DNA of 64,000 nt from Eledone cirrhosa. Lineage: Eukaryota. The translations under genes were made by a program, and so were the position numbers. Shown here piece after piece: positions 1 to 64,000 of this stretch. The notes under the pieces were generated by a model, which was not told the DNA's origin, did no database searches, and worked only from the letters and a program-made list of their open reading frames with translations. The stretch covers positions 61,132,001-61,196,000 of the forward strand of contig OZ024745.1 in NCBI GenBank assembly GCA_964016885.1, read 5' to 3'. Each line of letters opens with the position of its first letter. Within the stretch, counting starts at the first letter, position 1.

Positions 1-3000
1 CTGATCATCTAGGTAACGGTGGTTGTATGGCTAGGACAGTTCTCCTCAGATCACCTAGGTAACTGTGGTTGTATGACTAGGACAGTTCTCCTCTGATCAC
101 CTAGGTAACTGTGGTTGTATGGCTAGGACAGTTCTCCTCAGATCACCTTGGTAACTGTGGTTGTATGAATAGGACAGTTCACCTCTGATCACCTAGGTAA
201 CTGTGGTTGTATGGCTAGGACAGTTCTCCTCAGATCACCTAGGTAACTGGTTGTATGGCTAGGACAGTTCTCCTCAGATCACCTAGGTAACTGTGGTTGT
301 ATGACTAGGACAGTTCTGCTCTGATCACCTAGGTAACTGTGGTTGTATGGCTAGGACAGTTCTCCTCTGATCACCTAGGTAACTGTGGTTGTATGTCTAG
401 GACAGTTCTCCTCAGATCACCTAGGTAACTGTGGTTGTATGGCTAGGACAGTTCTCCTCAGATCACCTAGGTAACTGTGGTTGTATGGCTAGGACAGTTC
501 TGCTCAGATCACCTAGGTAACTGGTTGTATGGCTAGGACAGTTCTCCTCTGATCACCTAGGTAACTGTGGTTGTATGTCTAGGACAGTTCTCCTCTGATC
601 ACCTAGGTAACTGTGGTTGTATGGCTAGGACAGTTCTCCTCAGATCACCTAGGTAACTGTGGTTGTATGTCTAGGACAGTTATCCTCTGATCACCTAGGT
701 AACTGTGGTTGTATGTCTAGGACAGTTCTCCTCAGATCACCTAGGTAACTGTGGTTGTATGGCTAGGACAGTTCTCCTCTGATCACCTAGGTAACTGTGG
801 TTGTATGGCTAGGACAGTTCTCCTCAGATCACTTAGGTAACTGTTGTTGTATTGCTAGGACAGTTCTCCTCTGATCACCTAGGTAACTGTGGTTGTATGT
901 CTAGGACAGTTCTCCTCTGATCACCTAGGTAACTGTGGTTGTATGTCTAGGACAGTTCTCCTCTGATCACCTAGTTACCTGTGGTTGTATGGCTAGGACA
1001 GTTCTCCTCTGATCACCTAGGTAACTGTGGTTGTATGGCTAGGACAGTTCTCCTCAGATCACCTAGGTAACTGTTGTTGTATTGCTAGGACAGTTCTCCT
1101 CTGATCACCTAGGTAACGGTGGTTGTATGGCTAGGACAGTTCTCCCCAGATCACCTAGGTAACTGTGGTTGTATGGCTAGGACAGTTCTCCTCAGATCAC
1201 CTAGGTAACTGTTGTTGTATTGCTAGGACAGTTCTCCTCAGATCACCTAGGTAACTGTGGTTGTATTGCTAGGACAGTTCTCCTCAGATCACCTAGGTAA
1301 CTGTGGTTGTATGGCTAGGACAGTTCTCCTCAGATTACCTAGGTAACTGTGGTTGTATGGCTAGGACAGTTCTCCTCAGATCACCTAGGTAACTGTGGTG
1401 GTATGGCTAGGACAGTTCTTTTCAGATCACCTAGGTAACTGTGGTTGTATGGCTAGGACAGTTCTCCTCAGATCACCTAGGTAACTGTGGTTGTATTGCT
1501 ATGACAGTTCTCCTCTGATCACCTAGGTAACTGTGGTTGTATGGCTAGGACAGTTCTCCTCAGATCACCTAGGTAACTGTGGTGGTATGGTTAGGACAGT
1601 TCTCCTCAGATCACCTAGGTAACTGTGGTGGTATGGCTAGGACAGTTCTCCTCAGATCACCTAGTTTACTGTGGTTGTATGGCTAGGACAGTTCTCCTCA
1701 GATTATCTAGGTAACTGTGGTTGTATGGCTAGGACAGTTCTCCTCAGATCATCTAGGTAACTGTGGTTGTTTGGCTAGGACAGTTCTCCTCTGATCACCT
1801 AGGTAACTGTGGTTGTATGGCTAGGACAGTTCTCCTCAGATCACCTTGGTAACTGTGGTTATATGAATAGGACAGTTCACCTCTGATCACCTAGGTAACT
1901 GTGGTTGTATGGCTAGGACAGTTCTCCTCTGATCACCTAGGTAACTGTGGTTGTATGGCTAGGACAGTTCTCCTCAGATCACCTAGGTAACTGTGGTTGT
2001 ATTGCTAGGACAGTTCTCAGATCACCTAGGTAACTGATTGTATGGCTAGGGCAGTTCTCCTCAGATCACCTAGGTAACTGTGGTTGTATGACGAGGACAG
2101 TTCTCCTCTGATCACGTAGGTAACTGTGGTTGTATGGCTAGGACAGTTCTCCTCTGATCACCTAGGTAACGGTGGTTGTATGGCTAGGACAGTTCTCCTC
2201 TGATCACCAGTGTAACTGTGGTTGTATGACTAGGACAGTTCTCCTCTGATCACCTAGGTAACTGTGGTTGTATGGCTAGGACAGTTCTCCTCAGATCACC
2301 TAGGTAACTGGTGGTATGGCTAGGACAGTTCTCCTCAGATCATCTAGGTAACTGTGGTTGTATGACTAGGACAGTTCTCCTCTGATCACCTAGGTAACTG
2401 TGGTTGTATGGCTAGGACAGTTCTCCTCTGATCACCTAGGTAACTGTGGTGGTATGGCTAGGACAGTTCTCCTCTGATCACCTAGGTAACTGTGGTTGTA
2501 TGGCTAGGACAGTTCTCCTCAGATCACCTAGGTAACTGTGGTTGTATGTCTAGGACAGTTCTCCTCTGATCACCTAGGTAACTGTGGTTGTATGTCTAGG
2601 ACAGTTCTCCTCAGATCACCTAGGTAACTGTGGTTGTATGGCTAGGACAGTTCTCCTCTGATCACCTAGGTAACTGTGGTTGTATGGCTACGACAGTTCT
2701 CCTCAGATCACTTAGGTAACTGTTGTTGTATTGCTAGGACAGTTCTCCTCTGATCACCTAGGTAACTGTGGTTGTATGTCTAGGACAGTTCTCCTCTGAT
2801 CACCTAGGTAACTGTGGTTGTATGTCTAGGACAGTTCTCCTCTGATCACCTAGGTAACTGTGGTTGTATGTCTAGGACAGTTCTCCTCTGATCACCTAGT
2901 TACCTGTGGTTGTATGGCTAGGACAGTTCTCCTCTGATCACCTAGGTAACTGTGGTTGTATGGCTAGGACAGTTCTCCTCAGATCACCTAGGTAACTGTT

Positions 3001-6000
3001 GTTGTATTGCTAGGACAGTTCTCCTCTGATCACCTAGGTAACGGTGGTTGTATGGCTAGGACAGTTCTCCCCAGATCACCTAGGTAACTGTGGTTGTATG
3101 GCTAGGACAGTTCTCCTCAGATCACCTAGGTAACTGTTGTTGTATTGCTAGGACAGTTCTCCTCAGATCACCTAGGTAACTGTGGTTGTATTGCTAGGAC
3201 AGTTCTCCTCAGATCACCTAGGTAACTGTGGTTGTATGGCTAGGACAGTTCTCCTCAGATTACCTAGGTAACTGTGGTTGTATGGCTAGGACAGTTCTCC
3301 TCAGATCACCTAGGTAACTGTGGTGGTATGGCTAGGACAGTTCTTTTCAGATCACCTAGGTAACTGTGGTTGTATGGCTAGGACAGTTCTCCTCAGATCA
3401 CCTAGGTAACTGTGGTTGTATTGCTATGACAGTTCTCCTCTGATCACCTAGGTAACTGTGGTTGTATGGCTAGGACAGTTCTCCTCAGATCACCTAGGTA
3501 ACTGTGGTGGTATGGTTAGGACAGTTCTCCTCAGATCACCTAGGTAACTGTGGTGGTATGGCTAGGACAGTTCTCCTCAGATCACCTAGTTTACTGTGGT
3601 TGTATGGCTAGGACAGTTCTCCTCAGATTATCTAGGTAACTGTGGTTGTATGGCTAGGACAGTTCTCCTCAGATCATCTAGGTAACTGTGGTTGTTTGGC
3701 TAGGACAGTTCTCCTCTGATCACCTAGGTAACTGTGGTTGTATTGCTAGGACAGTTCTCCTCAGATCACCTAGGTAACTGTGGTGGTATGGCTAGGAGAG
3801 TTCTCCTCTGATCACCTAGGTAACGGTGGTTGTATGGCTAGGACAGTTCTCCTCTGCTCACCTGTGTAACTGTGGTTGTATGACTAGGACAGTTCTCCTC
3901 TGATCACCTAGGTAACTGTGGTTGTATGGCTAGGACAGTTCTCCTCAGATCACCTTGGTAACTGTGGTTATATGAATAGGACAGTTCACCTCTGATCACC
4001 TAGGTAACTGTGGTTGTATGGCTAGGACAGTTCTCCTCTGATCACCTAGGTAACTGTGGTTGTATGGCTAGGACAGTTCTCCTCAGATCACCTAGGTAAC
4101 TGTGGTTGTATTGCTAGGACAGTTCTCAGATCACCTAGGTAACTGATTGTATGGCTAGGGCAGTTCTCCTCAGATCACCTAGGTAACTGTGGTTGTATGA
4201 CGAGGACAGTTCTCCCCAGATCACTTATGTAACTGTGGTTGTATGGCTAGGACGGTTCTCCTCTGATCACCTAGGTAACGGTGGTTGTATGGCTAGGACA
4301 GTTCTCCTCTGATCACCTGTGTAACTGTGGTTGTATGACTAGGACAGTTCTCCTCTGATCACCTAGGTCACTGTGGTTGTATGGCTAGGACAGTTCTCCT
4401 CAGATCACCTAGGTAACTGGTGGTATGGCTAGGACAGTTCTCCTCAGATCACCTAGGTAACTGTGGTTGTATGGCTAGGACAGTTCTCCTCTGATCACCT
4501 AGGTAACTGTGGTGGTATGGCTAGGACAGTTCTCCTCTGATCACCTAGGTAACTGTGGTTGTATGGCTAGGACAGTTCTCCTCAGATCACCTAGGTAACT
4601 GTGGTTGTATGGCTAGGACAGTTCTCAGATCACCTCGGTAACTGTGGTTGTATGGCTAGGACAGTCCTCCTCAGATCACCTAGGTAACTGTGGTTGTACG
4701 GCTAGGACAGTTCTCCTCAGATCACCAAGGTAACTGTGGTTGTATGGCTAGGACAGTTCTCCTCAGATCACCTAGGTAACTGTGTTTGTATGGCTAGGAC
4801 AGTTCTCCTCTGATCACCTAGGTAACTGTGGTTGTATGGCTAGGACAGTTCTCCTCAGATCACCTAGGTAACTGTGGTTGTATTGCTAGGACAGTTCTCA
4901 GATCACCTAGGTAACTGATTGTATGGCTAGGGCAGTTCTCCTCAGATCACCTAGGTAACTGTGGTTGTATGACGAGGACAGTTCTCCTCTGATCACGTAG
5001 GTAACTGTGGTTGTATGGCTAGGACAGTTCTCCTCTGATCACCTAGGTAACGGTGGTTGTATGGCTAGGACAGTTCTCCTCTGATCACCTGTGTAACTGT
5101 GGTTGTATGACTAGGACAGTTCTCCTCTGATCACCTAGGTAACTGTGGTTGTATGGCTAGGACAGTTCTCCTCAGATCACCTAGGTAACTGGTGGTATGG
5201 CTAGGACAGTTCTCCTCAGATCATCTAGGTAACTGTGGTTGTATGACTAGGACAGTTCTCCTCTGATCACCTAGGTAACTGTGGTTGTATGGCTAGGACA
5301 GTTCTCCTCTGATCACCTAGGTAACTGTGGTGGTATGGCTAGGACAGTTCTCCTCTGATCACCTAGGTAACTGTGGTTGTATGGCTAGGACAGTTCTCCT
5401 CAGATCACCTAGGTAACTGTGGTTGTATGTCTAGGACAGTACTCCTCTGATCACCTAGGTAACTGTGGTTGTATGTCTAGGACAGTTCTCCTCAGATCAC
5501 CTAGGTAACTGTGGTTGTATGGCTAGGACAGTTCTCCTCTGATCACCTAGGTAACTGTGGTTGTATGGCTACGACAGTTCTCCTCAGATCACTTAGGTAA
5601 CTGTTGTTGTATTGCTAGGACAGTTCTCCTCTGATCACCTAGGTAACTGTGGTTGTATGTCTAGGACAGTTCTCCTCTGATCACCTAGGTAACTGTGGTT
5701 GTATGTCTAGGACAGTTCTCCTCTGATCACCTAGGTAACTGTGGTTGTATGTCTAGGACAGTTCTCCTCTGATCACCTAGTTACCTGTGGTTGTATGGCT
5801 AGGACAGTTCTCCTCTGATCACCTAGGTAACTGTGGTTGTATGGCTAGGACAGTTCTCCTCAGATCACCTAGGTAACTGTTGTTGTATTGCTAGGACAGT
5901 TCTCCTCTGATCACCTAGGTAACGGTGGTTGTATGGCTAGGACAGTTCTCCCCAGATCACCTAGGTAACTGTGGTTGTATGGCTAGGACAGTTCTCCTCA

Positions 6001-9000
6001 GATCACCTAGGTAACTGTTGTTGTATTGCTAGGACAGTTCTCCTCAGATCACCTAGGTAACTGTGGTTGTATTGCTAGGACAGTTCTCCTCAGATCACCT
6101 AGGTAACTGTGGTTGTATGGCTAGGACAGTTCTCCTCAGATTACCTAGGTAACTGTGGTTGTATGGCTAGGACAGTTCTCCTCAGATCACCTAGGTAACT
6201 GTGGTGGTATGGCTAGGACAGTTCTTTTCAGATCACCTAGGTAACTGTGGTTGTATGGCTAGGACAGTTCTCCTCAGATCACCTAGGTAACTGTGGTTGT
6301 ATTGCTATGACAGTTCTCCTCTGATCACCTAGGTAACTGTGGTTGTATGGCTAGGACAGTTCTCCTCAGATCACCTAGGTAACTGTGGTGGTATGGTTAG
6401 GACAGTTCTCCTCAGATCACCTAGGTAACTGTGGTGGTATGGCTAGGACAGTTCTCCTCAGATCACCTAGTTTACTGTGGTTGTATGGCTAGGACAGTTC
6501 TCCTCAGATTATCTAGGTAACTGTGGTTGTATGGCTAGGACAGTTCTCCTCAGATCATCTAGGTAACTGTGGTTGTTTGGCTAGGACAGTTCTCCTCTGA
6601 TCACCTAGGTAACTGTGGTTGTATTGCTAGGACAGTTCTCCTCAGATCACCTAGGTAACTGTGGTGGTATGGCTAGGAGAGTTCTCCTCTGATCACCTAG
6701 GTAACGGTGGTTGTATGGCTAGGACAGTTCTCCTCTGCTCACCTGTGTAACTGTGGTTGTATGACTAGGACAGTTCTCCTCTGATCACCTAGGTAACTGT
6801 GGTTGTATGGCTAGGACAGTTCTCCTCAGATCACCTTGGTAACTGTGGTTATATGAATAGGACAGTTCACCTCTGATCACCTAGGTAACTGTGGTTGTAT
6901 GGCTAGGACAGTTCTCCTCTGATCACCTAGGTAACTGTGGTTGTATGGCTAGGACAGTTCTCCTCAGATCACCTAGGTAACTGTGGTTGTATTGCTAGGA
7001 CAGTTCTCAGATCACCTAGGTAACTGATTGTATGGCTAGGGCAGTTCTCCTCAGATCACCTAGGTAACTGTGGTTGTATGACGAGGACAGTTCTCCCCAG
7101 ATCACTTATGTAACTGTGGTTGTATGGCTAGGACGGTTCTCCTCTGATCACCTAGGTAACGGTGGTTGTATGGCTAGGACAGTTCTCCTCTGATCACCTG
7201 TGTAACTGTGGTTGTATGACTAGGACAGTTCTCCTCTGATCACCTAGGTCACTGTGGTTGTATGGCTAGGACAGTTCTCCTCAGATCACCTAGGTAACTG
7301 GTGGTATGGCTAGGACAGTTCTCCTCAGATCACCTAGGTAACTGTGGTTGTATGGCTAGGACAGTTCTCCTCTGATCACCTAGGTAACTGTGGTGGTATG
7401 GCTAGGACAGTTCTCCTCTGATCACCTAGGTAACTGTGGTTGTATGGCTAGGACAGTTCTCCTCAGATCACCTAGGTAACTGTGGTTGTATGGCTAGGAC
7501 AGTTCTCAGATCACCTCGGTAACTGTGGTTGTATGGCTAGGACAGTCCTCCTCAGATCACCTAGGTAACTGTGGTTGTACGGCTAGGACAGTTCTCCTCA
7601 GATCACCAAGGTAACTGTGGTTGTATGGCTAGGACAGTTCTCCTCAGATCACCTAGGTAACTGTGTTTGTATGGCTAGGACAGTTCTCCTCTGATCACCT
7701 AGGTAACTGTGGTTGTATGACGAGGACAGTTCTCCCCAGATCACTTATGTAACGGTGGTTGTATGGCTAGGACAGTTCTCCTCAGATCACCTAGGTAACT
7801 GTGGTTGTATGGCTAGGACAGTTCTCCTCTGATCACCTAGGTAACGGTGGTTGTATGGCTAGGACAGTTCTCCTCTGATCACCTGTGTAACTGTGGTTGT
7901 ATGACTAGGACAGTTCTCCTCTGATCACCTAGGTAACTGTGGTTGTATGGCTAGGACAGTTCTCCTCAGATCACCTAGGTAACTGGTGGTATGGCTAGGA
8001 CAGTTCTCCTCTGATCACCTAGGTAACTGTGGTGGTATGACTAGGACAGTTCTCCTCTGATCACCTAGGTAACTGTGGTTGTATGGCTAGGACAGTTCTC
8101 CTCTGATCACCTGTGTAACTGTGGTTGTATGACTAGGACAGTTCTCCTCTGATCACCTAGGTAACTGTGGTTGTATGGCTAGGACAGTTCTCCTCTGATC
8201 ACCTAGGTAACTGTGGTGGTATGGCTAGGACAGTTCTCCTCTGATCACCTAGGTAACTGTGGTTGTATGGCTAGGACAGTTCTCCTCAGATCACCTAGGT
8301 AACTGTGGTTGTATGACTAGGACAGTTCTCCCCAGATCACCTAGGTAACTGTGGTTGTTTGGCTAGGACAGTTCTCCTCAGATCACCTAGGTAACTGTGG
8401 TTGTATTGCTAGGACAGTTCTCCTCTGATTACCTAGGTAACTGTGGTTGTATGGCTAGGACAGTTCTCCTCAGATTACCTAGGTTACTGTGGTTGTATGG
8501 CTAGGACAGTTCTCCTCAGATCACCTAGGTAACTGTGGTTGTATTGCTAGGACAGTTCTCCTCAGATCACCTAGGTAACTGTGGTTATATTGCTAGGACA
8601 GTTCTCCTCAGATCACCTAAGTAACTGTGGTTGTATTGCTAGGACAGTTCTCCTCAGATCACCTAAGTAACTGTGGTTGTATTGCTAGGACAGTTCTCCC
8701 CAGATCACCTAGGCAACTGATTGTATGGCTAGGACAGTTCTCCCCTGATCACCTAGGTAACTGTGGTTGTATGGCTAGGACAGTTCTCCTCAGATCACCT
8801 AGGTAACTGTGGTTGTATGGCTAGGACAGTTCTCCTCAGATCACCTAAGTAACTGTGGTTGTATTGCTAGGACAGTTCTCCCCAGATCACCTAGGCAACT
8901 GATTGTATGGCTAGGACAGTTCTCCCCTGATCACCTAGGTAACTGTGGTTGTATGGCTAGGACAGTTCTCCTCAGATCACCTAGGTAACTGTGGTTGTAT

Positions 9001-12000
9001 GGCTAGGACAGTTCTCCTCAGATCACCTAGGCAACTGTGGTTGTATGGCTAGGACAGTTCTCCTCTGATCACCTAGGTAACTGTGGTTGTATGACGAGGA
9101 CAGTTCTCCCCAGATCACTTATGTAACGGTGGTCGTATGGCTAGGACAGTTCTCCTCTGATCACCTAGGTAACTGTGGTGGTATGGCTAGGACAGTTCTC
9201 CTCTGATCACCTAGGTAACGGTGGTTGTATGGCTAGGACAGTTCTCCTCAGATCACCTAGGTAACTGTGGTTGTATGACTAGGACAGTTCTCCTCTGATC
9301 ACCTAGGTAACTGTGGTTGTATGGCTAGGACAGTTCTCCTCAGATCACCTTGGTAACTGTGGTTGTATGAATAGGACAGTTCACCTCTGATCACCTAGGT
9401 AACTGTGGTTGTATGGCTAGGACAGTTCTCCTCAGATCACCTAGGTAACTGGTTGTATGGCTAGGACAGTTCTCCTCAGATCACCTAGGTAACTGTGGTT
9501 GTATGACTAGGACAGTTCTGCTCTGATCACCTAGGTAACTGTGGTTGTATGGCTAGGACAGTTCTCCTCTGATCACCTAGGTAACTGTGGTTGTATGTCT
9601 AGGACAGTTCTCCTCAGATCACCTAGGTAACTGTGGTTGTATGGCTAGGACAGTTCTCCTCAGATCACCTAGGTAACTGTGGTTGTATGGCTAGGACAGT
9701 TCTCCTCAGATCACCTAGGTAACTGGTTGTATGTCTAGGACAGTTCTCCTCTGATCACCTAGGTAACTGTGGTTGTATGTCTAGGACAGTTCTCCTCAGA
9801 TCACCTAGGTAACTGTGGTTGTATGGCTAGGACAGTTCTCCTCTGATCACCTAGGTAACTGTGGTTGTATGTCTAGGACAGTTCTCCTCTGATCACCTAA
9901 TTAGCTGTGGTTGTATGGCTAGGACAGTTCTCCTCTGATCACCTAGGTAACTGTGGTTGTATGGCTAGGACAGTTCTCCTCAGATCACCTAGGTAACTGT
10001 TGTTGTATTGCTAGGACAGTTCTCCTCTGATCACCTAGGTAACGGTGGTTGTATGGCTAGGACAGTTCTCCCCAGATCACCTAGGTAACTGTGGTTGTAT
10101 GGCTAGGACAGTTCTCCTCAGATCACCTAGGTAACTGTTGTTGTATTGCTAGGACAGTTCTCCTCAGATCACCTAGGTAACTGTGGTTGTATTGCTAGGA
10201 CAGTTCTCCTCAGATCACCTAGGTAACTGTGTTTGTATGGCTAGGACAGTTCTCCTCAGATTACCTAGGTAACTGTGGTTGTATGGCTAGGACAGTTCTC
10301 CTCAGATCACCTAGGTAACTGTGGTGGTATGGCTAGGACAGTTCTTTTCAGATCACCTAGGTAACTGTGGTTGTATGGCTAGGACAGTTCTCCTCAGATC
10401 ACCTAGGTAACTGTGGTTGTATTGCTATGACAGTTCTCCTCTGATCACCTAGGTAACTGTGGTTGTATGGCTAGGACAGTTCTCCTCAGATCACCTAGGT
10501 AACTGTGGTGGTATGGTTAGGACAGTTCTCCTCAGATCACCTAGGTAACTGTGGTGGTATGGCTAGGACAGTTCTCCTCAGATCACCTAGTTTACTGTGG
10601 TTGTATGGCTAGGACAGTTCTCCTCAGATTATCTAGGTAACTGTGGTTGTATGGCTAGGACAGTTCTCCTCAGATCATCTAGGTAACTGTGGTTGTTTGG
10701 CTAGGACAGTTCTCCTCTGATCACCTAGGTAACTGTGGTTGTATTGCTAGGACAGTTCTCCTCAGATCACCTAGGTAACTGTGGTTGTATGGCTAGGACA
10801 GTTCTCCTCAGATCACCTAGGTAACTGTGATGGTATGGCTAGGACAGTTCTCCTCAGATCACCTAGGTAACTGTGGTTGTATGGCTAGGACAGTTCTCCT
10901 CTGATCACCTAGGTAACTGTGGTGGTATGGCTAGGACAGTTCTCCTCTAATCACCTAGGTAACTGTGGTTGTATGGCTAGGACAGTTCTCCTCAGATCAC
11001 CTAGGTAACTGTGGTTGTATGGCTAGGACAGTTCTCCTCTGATCACCTAGGTAACTGTGGTGGTATGGCTAGGACAGTTCTCCTCTAATCACCTAGGTAA
11101 CTGTGGTTGTATGGCTAGGACAGTTCTCCTCAGATCACCTATGTACCTGTGGTTGTATGGCTAGGACAGTTCTCCTCAGATCATCTATGTACCTGTGGTT
11201 GTATGGCTAGGTCAGTTCTCCTCAGATCACCTATGTACCTGTGGTTGTATGGCTAGGACAGTTCTCCTCAGATCACCTAGGTAACTGTGGTTGTATGGCT
11301 AGGACAGTTCTCAGATCACCTAGGTAACTGTGGTTGTATGTCTAGGACAGTCCTCCTCAGATCACCTAGGTAACTGTGGTTGTATGGCTAGGACAGTTCT
11401 CCTCAGATTACCTAGGTAACTGTGGTTGTATGGCTAGGACAGTTCTCCTCAGATCACCTAGGTAACTGTGGTTGCATGGCTAGGACAGTTCTCCTCTGAT
11501 CACCTAGGTAACTGTGGTTGTATGACGAGGACAGTTCTCCCCAGATCACTTATGTAACGGTGGTTGTATGGCTAGGACAGTTCTCCTCTGATCACGTAGG
11601 TAACTGTGGTTGTATGGCTAGGACAGTTCTCCTCTGATCACCTAGGTAACTGTGGTTGTATGACTAGGACAGTTCTCCTCTGATCACCTAGGTAACTGTG
11701 GTTGTATGGCTAGGACAGTTCTCCTCAGATCACCTAGGTAACTGTGGTTGTATGGCTAGGACAGTTCTCCTCTGATCACCTAGGTAACTGTGGTTGTATG
11801 GCTAGGACAGTTCTCCTCAGATCACCTAGGTAACTGTGGTTGTATGACTAGGACTGTTCTCCCCAGATCACCTAGGTAACTGTGGTTGTTTGGCTAGGAC
11901 AGTTCTCCTCAGATCACCTAGGTAACTGTGGTTGTATGGCTAGGACAGTTCTCCTCAGATCACCTAGGTAACTGATTATATGTCTAGGACAGTTCTCCCC

Positions 12001-12720
12001 TGATCACCTAGTTAACTGTGGTTGTATGGCTAGGACAGTTCTCCTCAGATCACCTAGGTAACTGTGGTTATATTGCTAGGACAGTTCTTCTCAGATCACC
12101 TAGGTAACTGATTGTATGGCTAGGACAGTGCTCCCCTGATCACCTAGGTAACTGTGGTTGTATGGCTAGGACAGTTCTCCTCAGATCACCTAGGTAACTG
12201 TGGTTATATTGCTAGGACAGTTCTCAGATCACCTAGGTAACTGATTGTATGGCTAGGACAGTTCTCCTCTGATCACCTAGGTAACTGTGGTTGTATTGCT
12301 AGGACAGTTCTCAGATCACCTAGGTAACTGATTGTATGGCTAGGACAGTTCTCCTCTGATCACCTAGGTAACTGTGGTTGTATGGCTAGGACAGTTCTCA
12401 GATCACCTAGGTAACTGATTGTATGGCTAGGACAGTTCTCCCCTGATCACCTAGGTAACTGTGGTTGTATGGCTAGGACAGTTCTCAGATCACCTAGGTA
12501 ACTGATTGTATGGCTAGGACAGTTCTCCCCTGATCACCTAGGTAACTGTGGTTGTATGGCTAGGACAGTTCTCCCTTGATCACCTAGGTAACTGTGGTTG
12601 TATGGCTCGGACAGTTCTCAGATCACCTAGGTAACTGATTGTATGGCTAGGACAGTTCTCCCCTGATCACCTAGGTAACTGTGGTTGTATGGATCGGACA
12701 GTTCTCAGATCACCTAGGTA
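1..12720. repeat. 46-bp tandem satellite array, about 277 units, open at the window start; consensus GATCACCTAGGTAACTGTGGTTGTATGGCTAGGACAGTTCTCCTC(A/T)
   Basis: GATC recurs at 3, 49, etc. (period 46), head-to-tail with no spacers; occasional 43- and 44-bp deletion variants. Confidence 0.99.
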
Positions 12721-15133: not shown

Positions 15134-60775
<45,642 letters not shown>

Positions 60776-61857
60776 GTAAGTTCATCTTCATTGAAATTGA
60801 ACTGTTTTCAGAAGACATTCTTTTGAATTCATCAAATCACACTTAGAATAGATAAATAGATAAATCAAATACTGATATTTGATTGAAGTAGAGCTTATTA
60901 AATTTTACTAATCTATCTCTGACAAATTTTTTTATTTAAGTGGCAGCATTCCTGTGAGAATTAATTTTCTTTATACATGACAAAAAAAGTACATTACTAG
61001 AAATATACGTTATAAAATAAATAGGATGTGTTGGGGGGGGGGGGGGTCTCAATATGTAAACTAAACAACTAATTATATTTCTTTTTTTTTTTTTTTTTAA
61101 ATCAACGGAAACAATTATCAATCCCCACCCCCATATTATTTGGGACCCAAGAATACTTAAAGTACTTGATTCTATTTTCAGTAACTTTAAATAGATGAAA
61201 ACGACCCTCTTGCAGGCACGATGGTAATCTATTATGTTAAATTTCCTTATCATTTTCTTGACTGTAGATATACTGAAGTCAGAATAAAAAGTCCTTTTGA
61301 GAAAAACAAAGAGATATCTACAACAGCTAGTAGTCCTATATGTTTATCCACTTGGCTAGGAGGCAATTTAATCAACTATACCTCTTCTCTTTACTAAATT
61401 ACTAAAACTGTATGATTAAGAGGACGATAGATTTGCTAGAACGTCAGACAAAATGCTTTACAGTATTTAGTCACGGCTCTTTACATTCTGTGCTCAGATC
61501 TTGCCAAGGTTAACTTTGCTTTTCATCTATCTAGCATTGATAAAATACCAAAATACTAGCCAAGTAGTACAGGGAGTTGTAATAATCAACTTTCCCATCT
61601 CCCTTCCAAAAATTATCTGGCCTTGTGCCTAAATTAGATACCTATATTAATGTAATATGAATAATCTGATACACTTCATTTAAAAAAAAAAAAATCTTCT
61701 TCTTCTGCTTCTCTCTTCTATTTCTCCTTCTCCTTCTCTCTTCTATTTCTCCTTCTCCTTCTTTCTTCTTTTTCTTCTTCTCCTCCTCTTCTTTTTTTTT
61801 AGTGCAGCTCCATGTAGGGAAATGCTTCCTTTGGTGGTGAACTACCTGATTCTGACA

Positions 61858-63052
61858 TCAAAGACCCTTCATGAGCTGCTGCGCCTCCGATACAGCATCA
61901 TTGAAGGCCTGACCTAGGGTTCCGAACCTTACTTTGCCCAGCAGGTTCTTCTTAAACGTAGAGATGAAACTTGAAGGATCCGGATACTGTTCTAGAAGCT
62001 GAACCATTGATTCAGCTAGCGATAATCCGGTGTAGGGGACGGCTGCCTCTTCTACCAATGATACGTCCGGAACGAAGTTGTAGGCGACTTTGAAGGCTAG
62101 AGCGTCCACAAGCGCCTCTTCTACATATCCCGGCTCTATGTTTCTTGAATCAATGAATCTCTTGTCCTTGTTCAGACATCCAATCATTCCATAAAACGTG
62201 TGCAGGTAAGGGTTCGATCCCACAGAGAAGACACACTTATCTATCAGTCCCAAGGACTTCTGATAAGGGAAAATCCCTGTTTCCGAAGCTCCTGCATTTA
62301 GGGACCTCAACATTCTCGTTATTTCGTTCGCCCCGGCTTCATTTATCATTAGGTAAAGCAGATCGGAGATGGTCAAATTAAGAATATTCATGAAGTGATT
62401 CAGAACTTCGATTATGTGCATGCCTTCGTATCGGGCCAGTATAGTTCCTCTTCGCAGTAATGACAAGTCATGTGCATTATAGTTACCTGAAATGATCATT
62501 TTTCACAATATGACTCAGGAAGCCGTTAAGAAGCATATCCTGATCATACCGATAAGGATGTGTCATCCTATAATTGTTAAAAGTTTTTATTATATTCTGT
62601 TTATAGTCGCCGACTTCCAGACTTGTCCCCGCATTTACTACCTTATAAAGGGTGACGATATAAAGTAGTAGTCCGAGATGGTGATTTTGAGTGGACGTTG
62701 TTGCGGTGGGTGTGGGGAAGCTGGAATTCTCGGTGATGGTGAAGAAGTCTGCAGGAGTGACTGTATTCTTTTGTCGAATAAAACTGTAATTCTGCAGATC
62801 AGCATTAATATCGAATTTTAGATAAGACTGGCAATACCTGATCATGAAGTGTAAGATGTGTTTTGGTAGAATTTCTTGTGTGTTTGCCTTGGTTTGAATG
62901 AAGTCGTGAGCCGCGTTAACATCTCCCCCAGAGAAGATGGTTACTTGCTGGGGCTGAAAGGATTCAGAATTAAAAACGTCAAAGTCCTTAGTCGTCTTGC
63001 TAAGGCTAAATTTCAGCTCCTCATGACCAGTGGAATTGGAAGAATTAGACAT
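61858..63052 (-). pseudogene. Endogenous viral element: rhabdovirus-like (Mononegavirales) nucleoprotein N gene, split into two overlapping ORFs (62483-63052 and 61858-62499)
   Basis: Intronless, about 400 aa joined; LLLYIVTLYKV, LRRGTILARYEG, PYQKSLGLIDKCVFSVGSNPYLH and RFGTLGQ are collinear with recalled vesiculovirus N motifs LPLYLLGLYRV, FRYGTIVSRFKD, PYLIDFGLSSKSPYSSVKNPAFH and REKTIGK. Confidence 0.85.
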
Positions 63053-63320
63053 AATGGATTGAAGGATTATAAAGACAACAGTAAAATACGATAAATCCGT
63101 GTTGTCTAATTATTAACATTAAATGTTAATGGTAAGTGTTGTAAGAATAGCTGTGGACGAAGCTATTATGGTAGTTTACCAGAGCTGGCAAGAAGATGAT
63201 GGGTAGGCGAGGAAATGTTGGCCTCCCAGATGTATTGCCGAATGTGCTAGGGAGCTAGGAAAAAATGGCCGGCCGCTTTGATAAGAAAAAAAGCAAGCTG
63301 AGCGATATCCAATTTTAGCC

Positions 63321-63499
63321 GCTTACTACAATGTATGAGGCTATTCCAACAAATTTACATTCCCCTTTTTTTAGCCGTTAAAAGAAATATAGATTTATGC
63401 CGCTTACTTGCTGTAGTTGCTGCTTACTTCAATGTATGAGGCTATTCCAACAAATTTACATTCCCCTTTTTTTAGCCGTTAAAAGAAATATAGATTTAT
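63321..63499. repeat. 78-bp direct duplication (63321-63398 and 63422-63499)
   Basis: CAATGTATGAGGCTATTCCAACAAATTTACATTCCCCTTTT..AGCCGTTAAAAGAAATATAGATTTAT occurs twice. Confidence 0.9.
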
Positions 63500-63505
63500 T
63501 TATTG

Positions 63506-63958
63506 TTTTTTTTTTGCGATTTATTTGCTACTGGGGCATAGATTTCTTTATTTGCCCCTTCTTTGTTTGTTTTTTTGCGATTTATTAGCCTTTTGGGGTC
63601 ACACACACCCCCGTAGAAAGTGTGCGACCTTTCTGCCAGGGAGCACAGAGAGAGGGGGGGTGCTCCCTTCTTCTCTTACCTGTACAAGCCGATATAGAGA
63701 GATGGCCCACTTACACGGGCCATTATTGCTACTTTCACCCATCTTTCATGGAATTGGCTGGGACTGAGTGCCTTTTTCTCCACCTTGATCCTTCTTTCGA
63801 AGTGGTATCGGAAGAAGAGGACCATTTGTTGGCCGGCGACATATCCCCACAGTTTCCTCGTTGCAAACGCATCTGGGACATTTCTTTTCCAAGGGGTTTC
63901 CGTCCCGGAATCCGTGTCTGTAGAGCCTTTCCCGAACGGGCAGGGCCCCTCGGTATAA
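63506..63958 (-). mobile_element. 5'-truncated, internally deleted L1/Tx1-clade LINE 3' end with poly-A
   Basis: Frames not in the ORF track: LYRGALPVRERLYRHG...KCPRCVCNEETV (zf-RVT-like), then FRYHFERRIKVEKKALSPSQFHERWVK...* (stop 63676-63678); AATAAATCGC-A(n) at 63570-63586 and 63506-63525. Confidence 0.75.
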
Positions 63959-64000
63959 TAGTAAGTATTAGTGGTTGTAATAAAAATGCAATCAAAATGT

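Follow-up and report, generated by a model that had tools for sequence, protein, structure and literature searches.

A rhabdovirus nucleoprotein gene copy joined to a Gypsy LTR element in an intron of the octopod Eledone cirrhosa

Introduction

Bornavirus EBLN elements are plain retrocopies of the nucleoprotein (N) gene made by LINE-1. Retrocopies generated by LINE enzymes are typically bordered by target-site duplications of about 7-20 bp, a duplication placed directly after the A-run being the usual target-primed footprint, and U6-L1-type chimeric retrocopies serve as the model for LINE template switching at the target. The locus described here resembles the EBLN elements in that N extends from gene start to gene end and is accompanied by an A-run and a candidate target duplication. 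Unlike them, however, it forms part of a fusion with a Gypsy element; elsewhere in the same genome, most N copies lie in or against LTR elements.

LTR retrotransposons have been linked in general terms with endogenous viral elements (EVEs), as stated in PMC7522710. In Aedes cells, more than 200 virus-LTR hybrids have been ascribed to copy-choice between Gypsy elements and viral RNA; a viral fragment bordered by Gypsy LTR and gag sequence is among the cases, and the recombination is described as not driven by homology (Tassetto et al. 2019, PMC6797480). Our material is alike in consisting of virus-Gypsy hybrids with the viral piece beside LTR or gag sequence; in contrast to the Aedes account, several junctions in the octopod genome display short microhomologies, and four chimeras retain both integrase ends and 4-bp duplications. 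Open-licence papers held nothing relevant on cephalopod or octopus EVEs or rhabdoviruses, which supplements to genome papers may list, and nothing relevant on the junction mechanism. The capture mechanism is known from mosquitoes, while the host group and the junction detail look new; the locus on its own is a decayed example of a class already described, and the value lies in the genome-wide series to which it led. The stretch of DNA analysed, 64,000 nucleotides and hereafter the window, is part of a chromosome-scale contig of the 3.0-Gb genome (G000:C5:61,132,001-61,196,000); features beyond its end are given as window-equivalent positions.

Results

The minus strand of the window harbors a rhabdovirus N gene at 61858-63052, as the preliminary description had proposed. 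Its reading frame leads from an ATG at 63052 to a stop at 61858 and is shifted near 62490, yielding frames of 189 and 214 codons, and the assembled copy is unable to encode a full-length N. The 214-codon frame (61858-62502) matches Rhabdo_ncap (PF00945) at E 1e-17 with 64.6 bits, the cut-off being 26, and the N frame also recovers solved rhabdovirus N chains (E 1.6e-8). On the same strand, the viral 5' UTR (63053-63103) opens with the gene-start motif AACAC, 51 nt ahead of the ATG, and matches the 5' UTR of the N copy at locus L011. At the other end, a 57-nt viral 3' UTR (61792-61857, minus strand) terminates in the gene-end motif CACT-A9, with the A9 run at 61792-61800, and gives way to a (GAA/GGA)n tract, both likewise as first described. 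Other N copies have CATTAG-A9 or CATCAG-A9 at the gene end; behind CATCAG-A9 come CT and a new AACTC gene start, a layout in keeping with the gene borders of rhabdoviruses. The viral piece spans gene start to gene end, with 13 extra nt preceding the gene start. As its A9 equals in length the A-run of copies that read through the gene end (L158 and L162), the run is no proof of an mRNA tail.

The copy is a real rhabdovirus N EVE. Its position within a chromosome-scale contig and an intron of a DOCK-family gene, together with two alleles in one sample, indicates that it is integrated and inherited. One contig crosses the N-Gypsy junction, reaching 60 bases into the element, and shows no differences; its sample may be the source of the assembly, and the contig therefore lends no independent support to the junction. 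In two other runs of this sample, a further allele was seen that differs by two substitutions and a single small indel, so the insertion is likely present in both haplotypes of that sample. N was also detected at thin depth in four further samples (X4, a 151-base contig; X5, depth of at most 4.5; X6, four reads; X7, two reads), the samples with N deriving from two studies in all. No empty allele was recovered among the seven runs, in which contigs break at the GAA tract and RAD coverage is patchy.

Word-indexed protein searches, run with either the C-terminal frame or that of L008, came back empty, but HMMER recovered 60 proteins at E <=0.001. Three of the top four proteins (ten of the 60 were looked up) originate from Octopus bimaculoides and Argonauta hians, the closest named ones being O. 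bimaculoides A0A0L8FVJ3, named for a rhabdovirus nucleocapsid domain, and the hypothetical A. hians proteins GAB1610042.1 and GAB1603531.1, at 48-59% identity over the matched C-terminal stretches. We calculated a tree of 22 rows, leaving out L122 and one short Argonauta row, with three rows less than half filled. Here the N copies and two octopod proteins form one clade (support 100/99) on a long branch, the tree program having flagged long branches that meet. None of the 22 rows places a named exogenous virus inside this clade.

The insertion resides in a DOCK-family host gene, with one exon at 56716-56823 on the plus strand (TPR_DOCK profile positions 53-88) and further exons past the insertion (profile positions 201-262 and 301-371). 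DOCK exons on the plus strand flank the composite on both sides; it thus sits within an intron, in the orientation opposite to that of the host gene. Elsewhere in the window, a 46-bp satellite array covers positions 3-12720 (278 copies, 92% matches). The (GAA/GGA)n tract behind the A-run (61695-61791, minus strand) belongs to the host and forms the distal half of a purine-rich tail of repeats that the insertion likely cut in two. Strongly GA-rich tails follow 5 of the 17 paralogues of the 5'-flank repeat, and it is likely that both flanks are halves of one purine tail. No target duplication had been recognised initially, but the left-flank 12-mer is matched best immediately behind the A-run, giving a 12-bp candidate with one mismatch (61780-61791 and window-equivalent 65440-65451). 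This candidate may hint at a target-primed insertion, but carries little weight in sequence of such low complexity. A 3' A-run (A9) and a 5' truncation are both present at the locus, and integrase ends, that is two intact LTR ends with a 4-bp duplication, are absent. Neither a sister nor a master of the chimera turned up in the assembly, in which the closest of the other N copies is 71% identical.

Beyond the viral gene, a 1792-bp palindrome extends from 63301 to window-equivalent 65092, its near arm within the window at 63301-64000. The boundary of the composite, originally set at 63958, is actually located at window-equivalent 65438. The arms of the palindrome measure 755 bp and are 98.9% alike (8 of 755 sites differ), a similarity that inside a palindrome may stem from gene conversion and is not necessarily a sign of youth. 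A search with 63100-64000 produced 4440 first-look candidates, 40 of which were scored; apart from the query locus itself, these were 96-99% alike, and many formed inverted pairs spanning about 1.7 kb, including one directly past the window end. The Merlin family is defined by GG termini and a target duplication of 8-9 bp. We class the palindrome as a Merlin-family foldback DNA transposon. As in Merlin/IS1016, GG termini and 8-bp duplications are found, the latter with at most one mismatch at 14 of the 19 other distinct foldback copies with both ends visible, and in L192 an IS1595-type transposase (PF12762) lies between these very terminal repeats. Foldback ends are common to two of the 30 fetched transposase loci, L192 sharing both and L195 one. 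Unlike Merlin/IS1016, the element is a non-autonomous palindrome with a LINE fragment per arm, and the copy at this locus has AG termini and no 8-bp duplication. The foldback family (window 63301-64000, L012-L041, L192, L195) is very abundant and little diverged, bears a LINE ORF2 end in both arms and contains a transposase in one copy.

The LINE piece is a Tx1/L1-like ORF2 C-terminal fragment at 63685-63846 (minus strand) in the near arm, with a mirror copy in the far arm. Its frame shares 47-60% amino-acid identity with LINE ORF2 relics at L163, L165 and L104 (tblastn, fetched loci), L165 itself displaying weak RVT_1 and zf-RVT matches under the cut-off; a Pfam scan of the foldback frames matched no family. 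Also inside the near arm are two AATAAATCGC-A runs (63516-63525 and 63577-63586), both already pointed out, and a duplication measured at 81 bp and 98% (63318-63398 and 63419-63499), earlier estimated at 78 bp. The Tx1 fragment and the AATAAATCGC runs are present in both arms and in most foldback copies; the other fetched foldback loci carry the 81-bp unit once per arm, with the exception of L021, which contains two elements. Since the far arm carries the Tx1 piece, A-runs and duplication in reverse, the co-orientation of LINE end and N emphasized in the preliminary description is meaningless. The Tx1-like origin suggested there stands, but the role as fusion partner does not: the piece is a passenger of the Merlin foldback, and rather than being tied to the viral gene it is found independently of N throughout the genome, an outcome that the preliminary description itself had named as contrary to its reading.

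Between the duplication and the ATG lie 265 bp, in agreement with the roughly 270 bp initially given as unassigned, but about 185 bp of these (63117-63300, minus strand) belong to the internal region of a Gypsy (CsRn1-like) element and stop about 240 nt before the position of its 3' LTR. The segment is 93-95% identical to 39 of 39 other places in the genome among the best 40 of 747 candidates, and within these 40 only the present locus crosses into N, which leaves a mobilisation of N by 3' transduction from the Tx1 piece, and a recurrence of the chimera at other loci, without support. The similarity to four aligned element copies stops at 63117, and a 13-nt filler (63104-63116, minus strand) separates this point from the viral gene start, with no clean microhomology seen at the Gypsy-N junction of this locus. 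Past the foldback, outside the window and again on the minus strand, the element resumes with its leader (window-equivalent 65093-65179), a tRNA-Trp primer site (65180-65196) and a 5'-truncated LTR of 241 bp (65198-65438); about 1.4 kb of the element is missing, its place being taken by the foldback. The primer site is complementary to host tRNA-Trp(CCA) 3' ends at 17 of 18 bases, ARAGORN calling no tRNA in the six first pattern loci and tRNA-Trp in two cluster stretches. Tandem tRNA-Trp genes, 7 in 10 kb, occur at L210 (G000:C4:353.41-353.42 Mb). The LTR is devoid of its first ~200 bp, all 29 other fetched copies reaching to within 12 nt of the LTR start, and its divergence from four family members is 2.6-5.8%; N is not followed by a 3' LTR at this locus. 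We also considered the 5' end of the chimera as an LTR transcription start, which was not supported, a subfamily diverging at LTR position 145-149.

Full copies of the partner family measure 2.7-2.9 kb, with LTRs of about 453 bp that terminate in AA and are 94-99% alike in pairs. Exact 4-bp duplications flank 9 of 11 such copies, one further copy having 3 of 4 and one being ambiguous within an AT repeat, and the single copy scanned has no frame of at least 100 codons. A related coding copy, L161, possesses a CHCC Gag motif and the order PR-RT-RH-IN, and has leader sequence in common with the partner element. A tRNA-Trp primer site, a 4-bp target duplication and the CHCC Gag motif are traits of CsRn1-like Ty3/Gypsy elements, according to PMC2582038. 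The first two are shared by the partner and the third by its coding relative, whereas the direct partner is non-coding and has LTRs ending in AA; we classify it, by traits, as a non-coding Gypsy LTR element with CsRn1-like features.

DNA and protein searches revealed at least ten N loci genome-wide, a lower bound. Gypsy yardsticks not cut from the tested locus were matched by 6 of these 10 and by none of 77 control loci of similar size that had been fetched for other queries. A first control was confounded by a short repeat in the gag-pol yardstick and by self-cut yardsticks and was hence repeated without that repeat and without the L009, L158 and L159 yardsticks. L158, L162 and L159 adjoin a purine tract and a TGTAG LTR-like start, a weaker, motif-level call; a 140-bp N fragment on C25 has no Gypsy sign, the sole such case of the ten. 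The Gypsy clan of the present locus recurs at five other N loci, with the same 3' region and the same family in L008, L009 and C28. Synonymous sites are saturated between five N groups, and dN/dS is 0.04-0.08 for pairs with L010 or L011 inside the L008 group. We assign the loci to at least five viral lineages, captured independently, and this saturation, combined with the differences of L010 and L011 from each other and from L008/L009, argues for at least seven captures.

Both integrase ends and 4-bp target duplications are preserved at four N loci, L008, L009, L010 and L011. L011:3670-7293 (G000:C2:336.02 Mb) is a two-LTR Gypsy provirus with sense N and the duplication AGGC, in which gag and a protease-like stretch remain and N replaces RT, RNase H and integrase; its viral gene start shows CGGAT microhomology to pol, and the 5' junction is of the same type as at the present locus. 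L008, L009, L010 and L159 instead have the order partial LTR, antisense N, element sequence, LTR. In L010:4116-6321 (G000:C2:55.89 Mb; duplication CGCT), the partial LTR's own T-run is joined to the viral A-tail, which makes this locus the best single evidence for putative priming on viral poly-A. This join, and the partial LTR that precedes antisense N, lead us to infer that viral RNA can be copied from a primer of plus-strand LTR DNA. Beside the L159 cassette, at 5850-6300, lies putative Helitron-like helicase sequence.

L008:4188-6573 (G000:C4:337.14 Mb) and L009:4433-6256 (G000:C5:74.85 Mb) are two copies of one chimera and have both junctions in common; 132 bp of U3 precede N in antisense, its 3' UTR, a purine tract and a complete LTR, with no primer-site word found, and L009 shows a GATTTG microhomology. 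The 4-bp duplications differ, TATA within an AT repeat in L008 and GAAC in L009, and the N parts show about 17 synonymous and 14 non-synonymous differences (dN/dS 0.22). On C28 (L160:5715-10000 and L161:1-4969; G000:C28:117.48 Mb), an antisense N fragment and the Gypsy 3' region form five tandem 1796-bp units, four near-identical in N and the fifth differing at 9-10 synonymous and 4 non-synonymous codons, with a coding Gypsy element after them. L158:4160-6354 (G000:C2:47.05 Mb), flanked by a 102-bp direct repeat, and L162:4080-7000 (G000:C219) continue past the end of N and enter the gene behind it, by position a putative P, so that their template would have been a read-through or genome-length RNA. 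Mononegavirus L-gene fragments occur at L166-L172 (G000:C3:130.16 Mb and three other places); of the solved structures, that of vesicular stomatitis virus L is nearest to the largest fragment (E 7e-137). Association with Gypsy sequence is slight at the L-gene loci, with a 71% match at 1 of 4 tested; primer-site-like words in these loci were rejected, having no preceding LTR end.

Discussion

Nine of the ten N loci adjoin Gypsy or Gypsy-like sequence, and it is likely that Gypsy elements trapped viral RNA repeatedly. Congruent with this, the N-Gypsy junction of the present locus was probably made by a Gypsy reverse transcriptase, copy-choice within a Gypsy particle linking the 5' end of the N template to the element RNA. 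A chimeric transcript from a master element would subsequently have been inserted by target-primed reverse transcription, primed on the viral A-run, with a LINE enzyme placing the chimeric RNA into the GAA tail. Lacking integrase ends and showing a candidate 12-bp duplication in that tail, the chimera was likely inserted by either a LINE enzyme or break repair. Finally, the Merlin foldback would have arrived last and taken away the ~1.4 kb of Gypsy element, a late arrival being suggested by arms that differ at only 8 of 755 sites compared to 2.6-5.8% for the LTR part. This entire sequence of events, Gypsy template switch, LINE insertion without integrase and Merlin last, has in our estimation an even chance of being correct. 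Of the LINE capture of N mRNA first put forward, what survives is an mRNA-like viral copy and possibly a LINE-type final step, but not the Tx1 partner.

The final step may also have proceeded without a LINE, the Gypsy reverse transcriptase building the whole chimeric cDNA in the particle, primed with the viral A-tail, and the product being captured at a DNA break in the microsatellite. Such a course would need no master copy, congruent with none being found, and the T-run to A-tail join of L010 makes it likely that Gypsy DNA does prime on viral RNA; moreover, the target duplication is weak. Nevertheless, the priming LTR piece seen in L008, L009, L010 and L159 is missing here and a 12-bp duplication right after the A-run is what target priming usually leaves, rendering break capture unlikely. 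Just as unlikely is that a LINE enzyme, acting in trans at the target, primed on the viral poly(A) and then switched to Gypsy RNA, in essence the mechanism of the preliminary description with another partner. The common orientation of both RNAs, the 3' A-run, the 5' truncation and the candidate duplication would all agree with such an event, which again requires no master, yet it leaves unexplained why the partner should come from the very Gypsy clan of five other N loci.

L011 proves that complete Gypsy::N proviruses exist, and at least one deletion, that at the Merlin site, has already affected the locus, so the copy might be a provirus of this kind that integrated and later lost U3 and the 3' LTR. 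Two deletions would however be needed, one stopping exactly at the viral gene end, and the flanks still look like halves of one repeat tail, making this very improbable. That the Tx1 LINE was a cis partner, or mobilised N by its 3' transduction, can practically be dismissed, for although the fragment is Tx1/L1-derived and oriented towards N in the near arm, it is standard in both Merlin arms, separated from N by Gypsy sequence and without a sister chimera among the 40 scored matches.

Returning to the Gypsy-made junction, the series as a whole permits a wider proposal, which we put forward as speculative and would not expect to hold in full. The octopod Gypsy clan may constitute a standing trap for rhabdovirus mRNA, in which nascent plus-strand LTR DNA primes on the transcript and is extended into an antisense copy of N before switching back to the element, the product integrating with both ends intact. 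The cassettes could then integrate repeatedly, as for L008 and L009, and, jointly with the antisense intronic copy, supply an inherited small-RNA memory directed at an as yet undescribed lineage of octopod rhabdoviruses.

The junctions come from a two-LTR provirus with N in sense, from antisense cassettes that start within U3, from a chimera that integrated twice and from a copy without integrase ends. They provide base-level detail for the capture of viral RNA by LTR elements, a process mostly described from insects. The reverse-transcription step that captures viral RNA has thereby become testable, as has the question of whether cephalopods make EVE-derived small RNAs. For the virus, the loci document a lineage of rhabdoviruses, likely from octopods, with at least seven entries into the germline, which these searches met mainly as genomic fossils.
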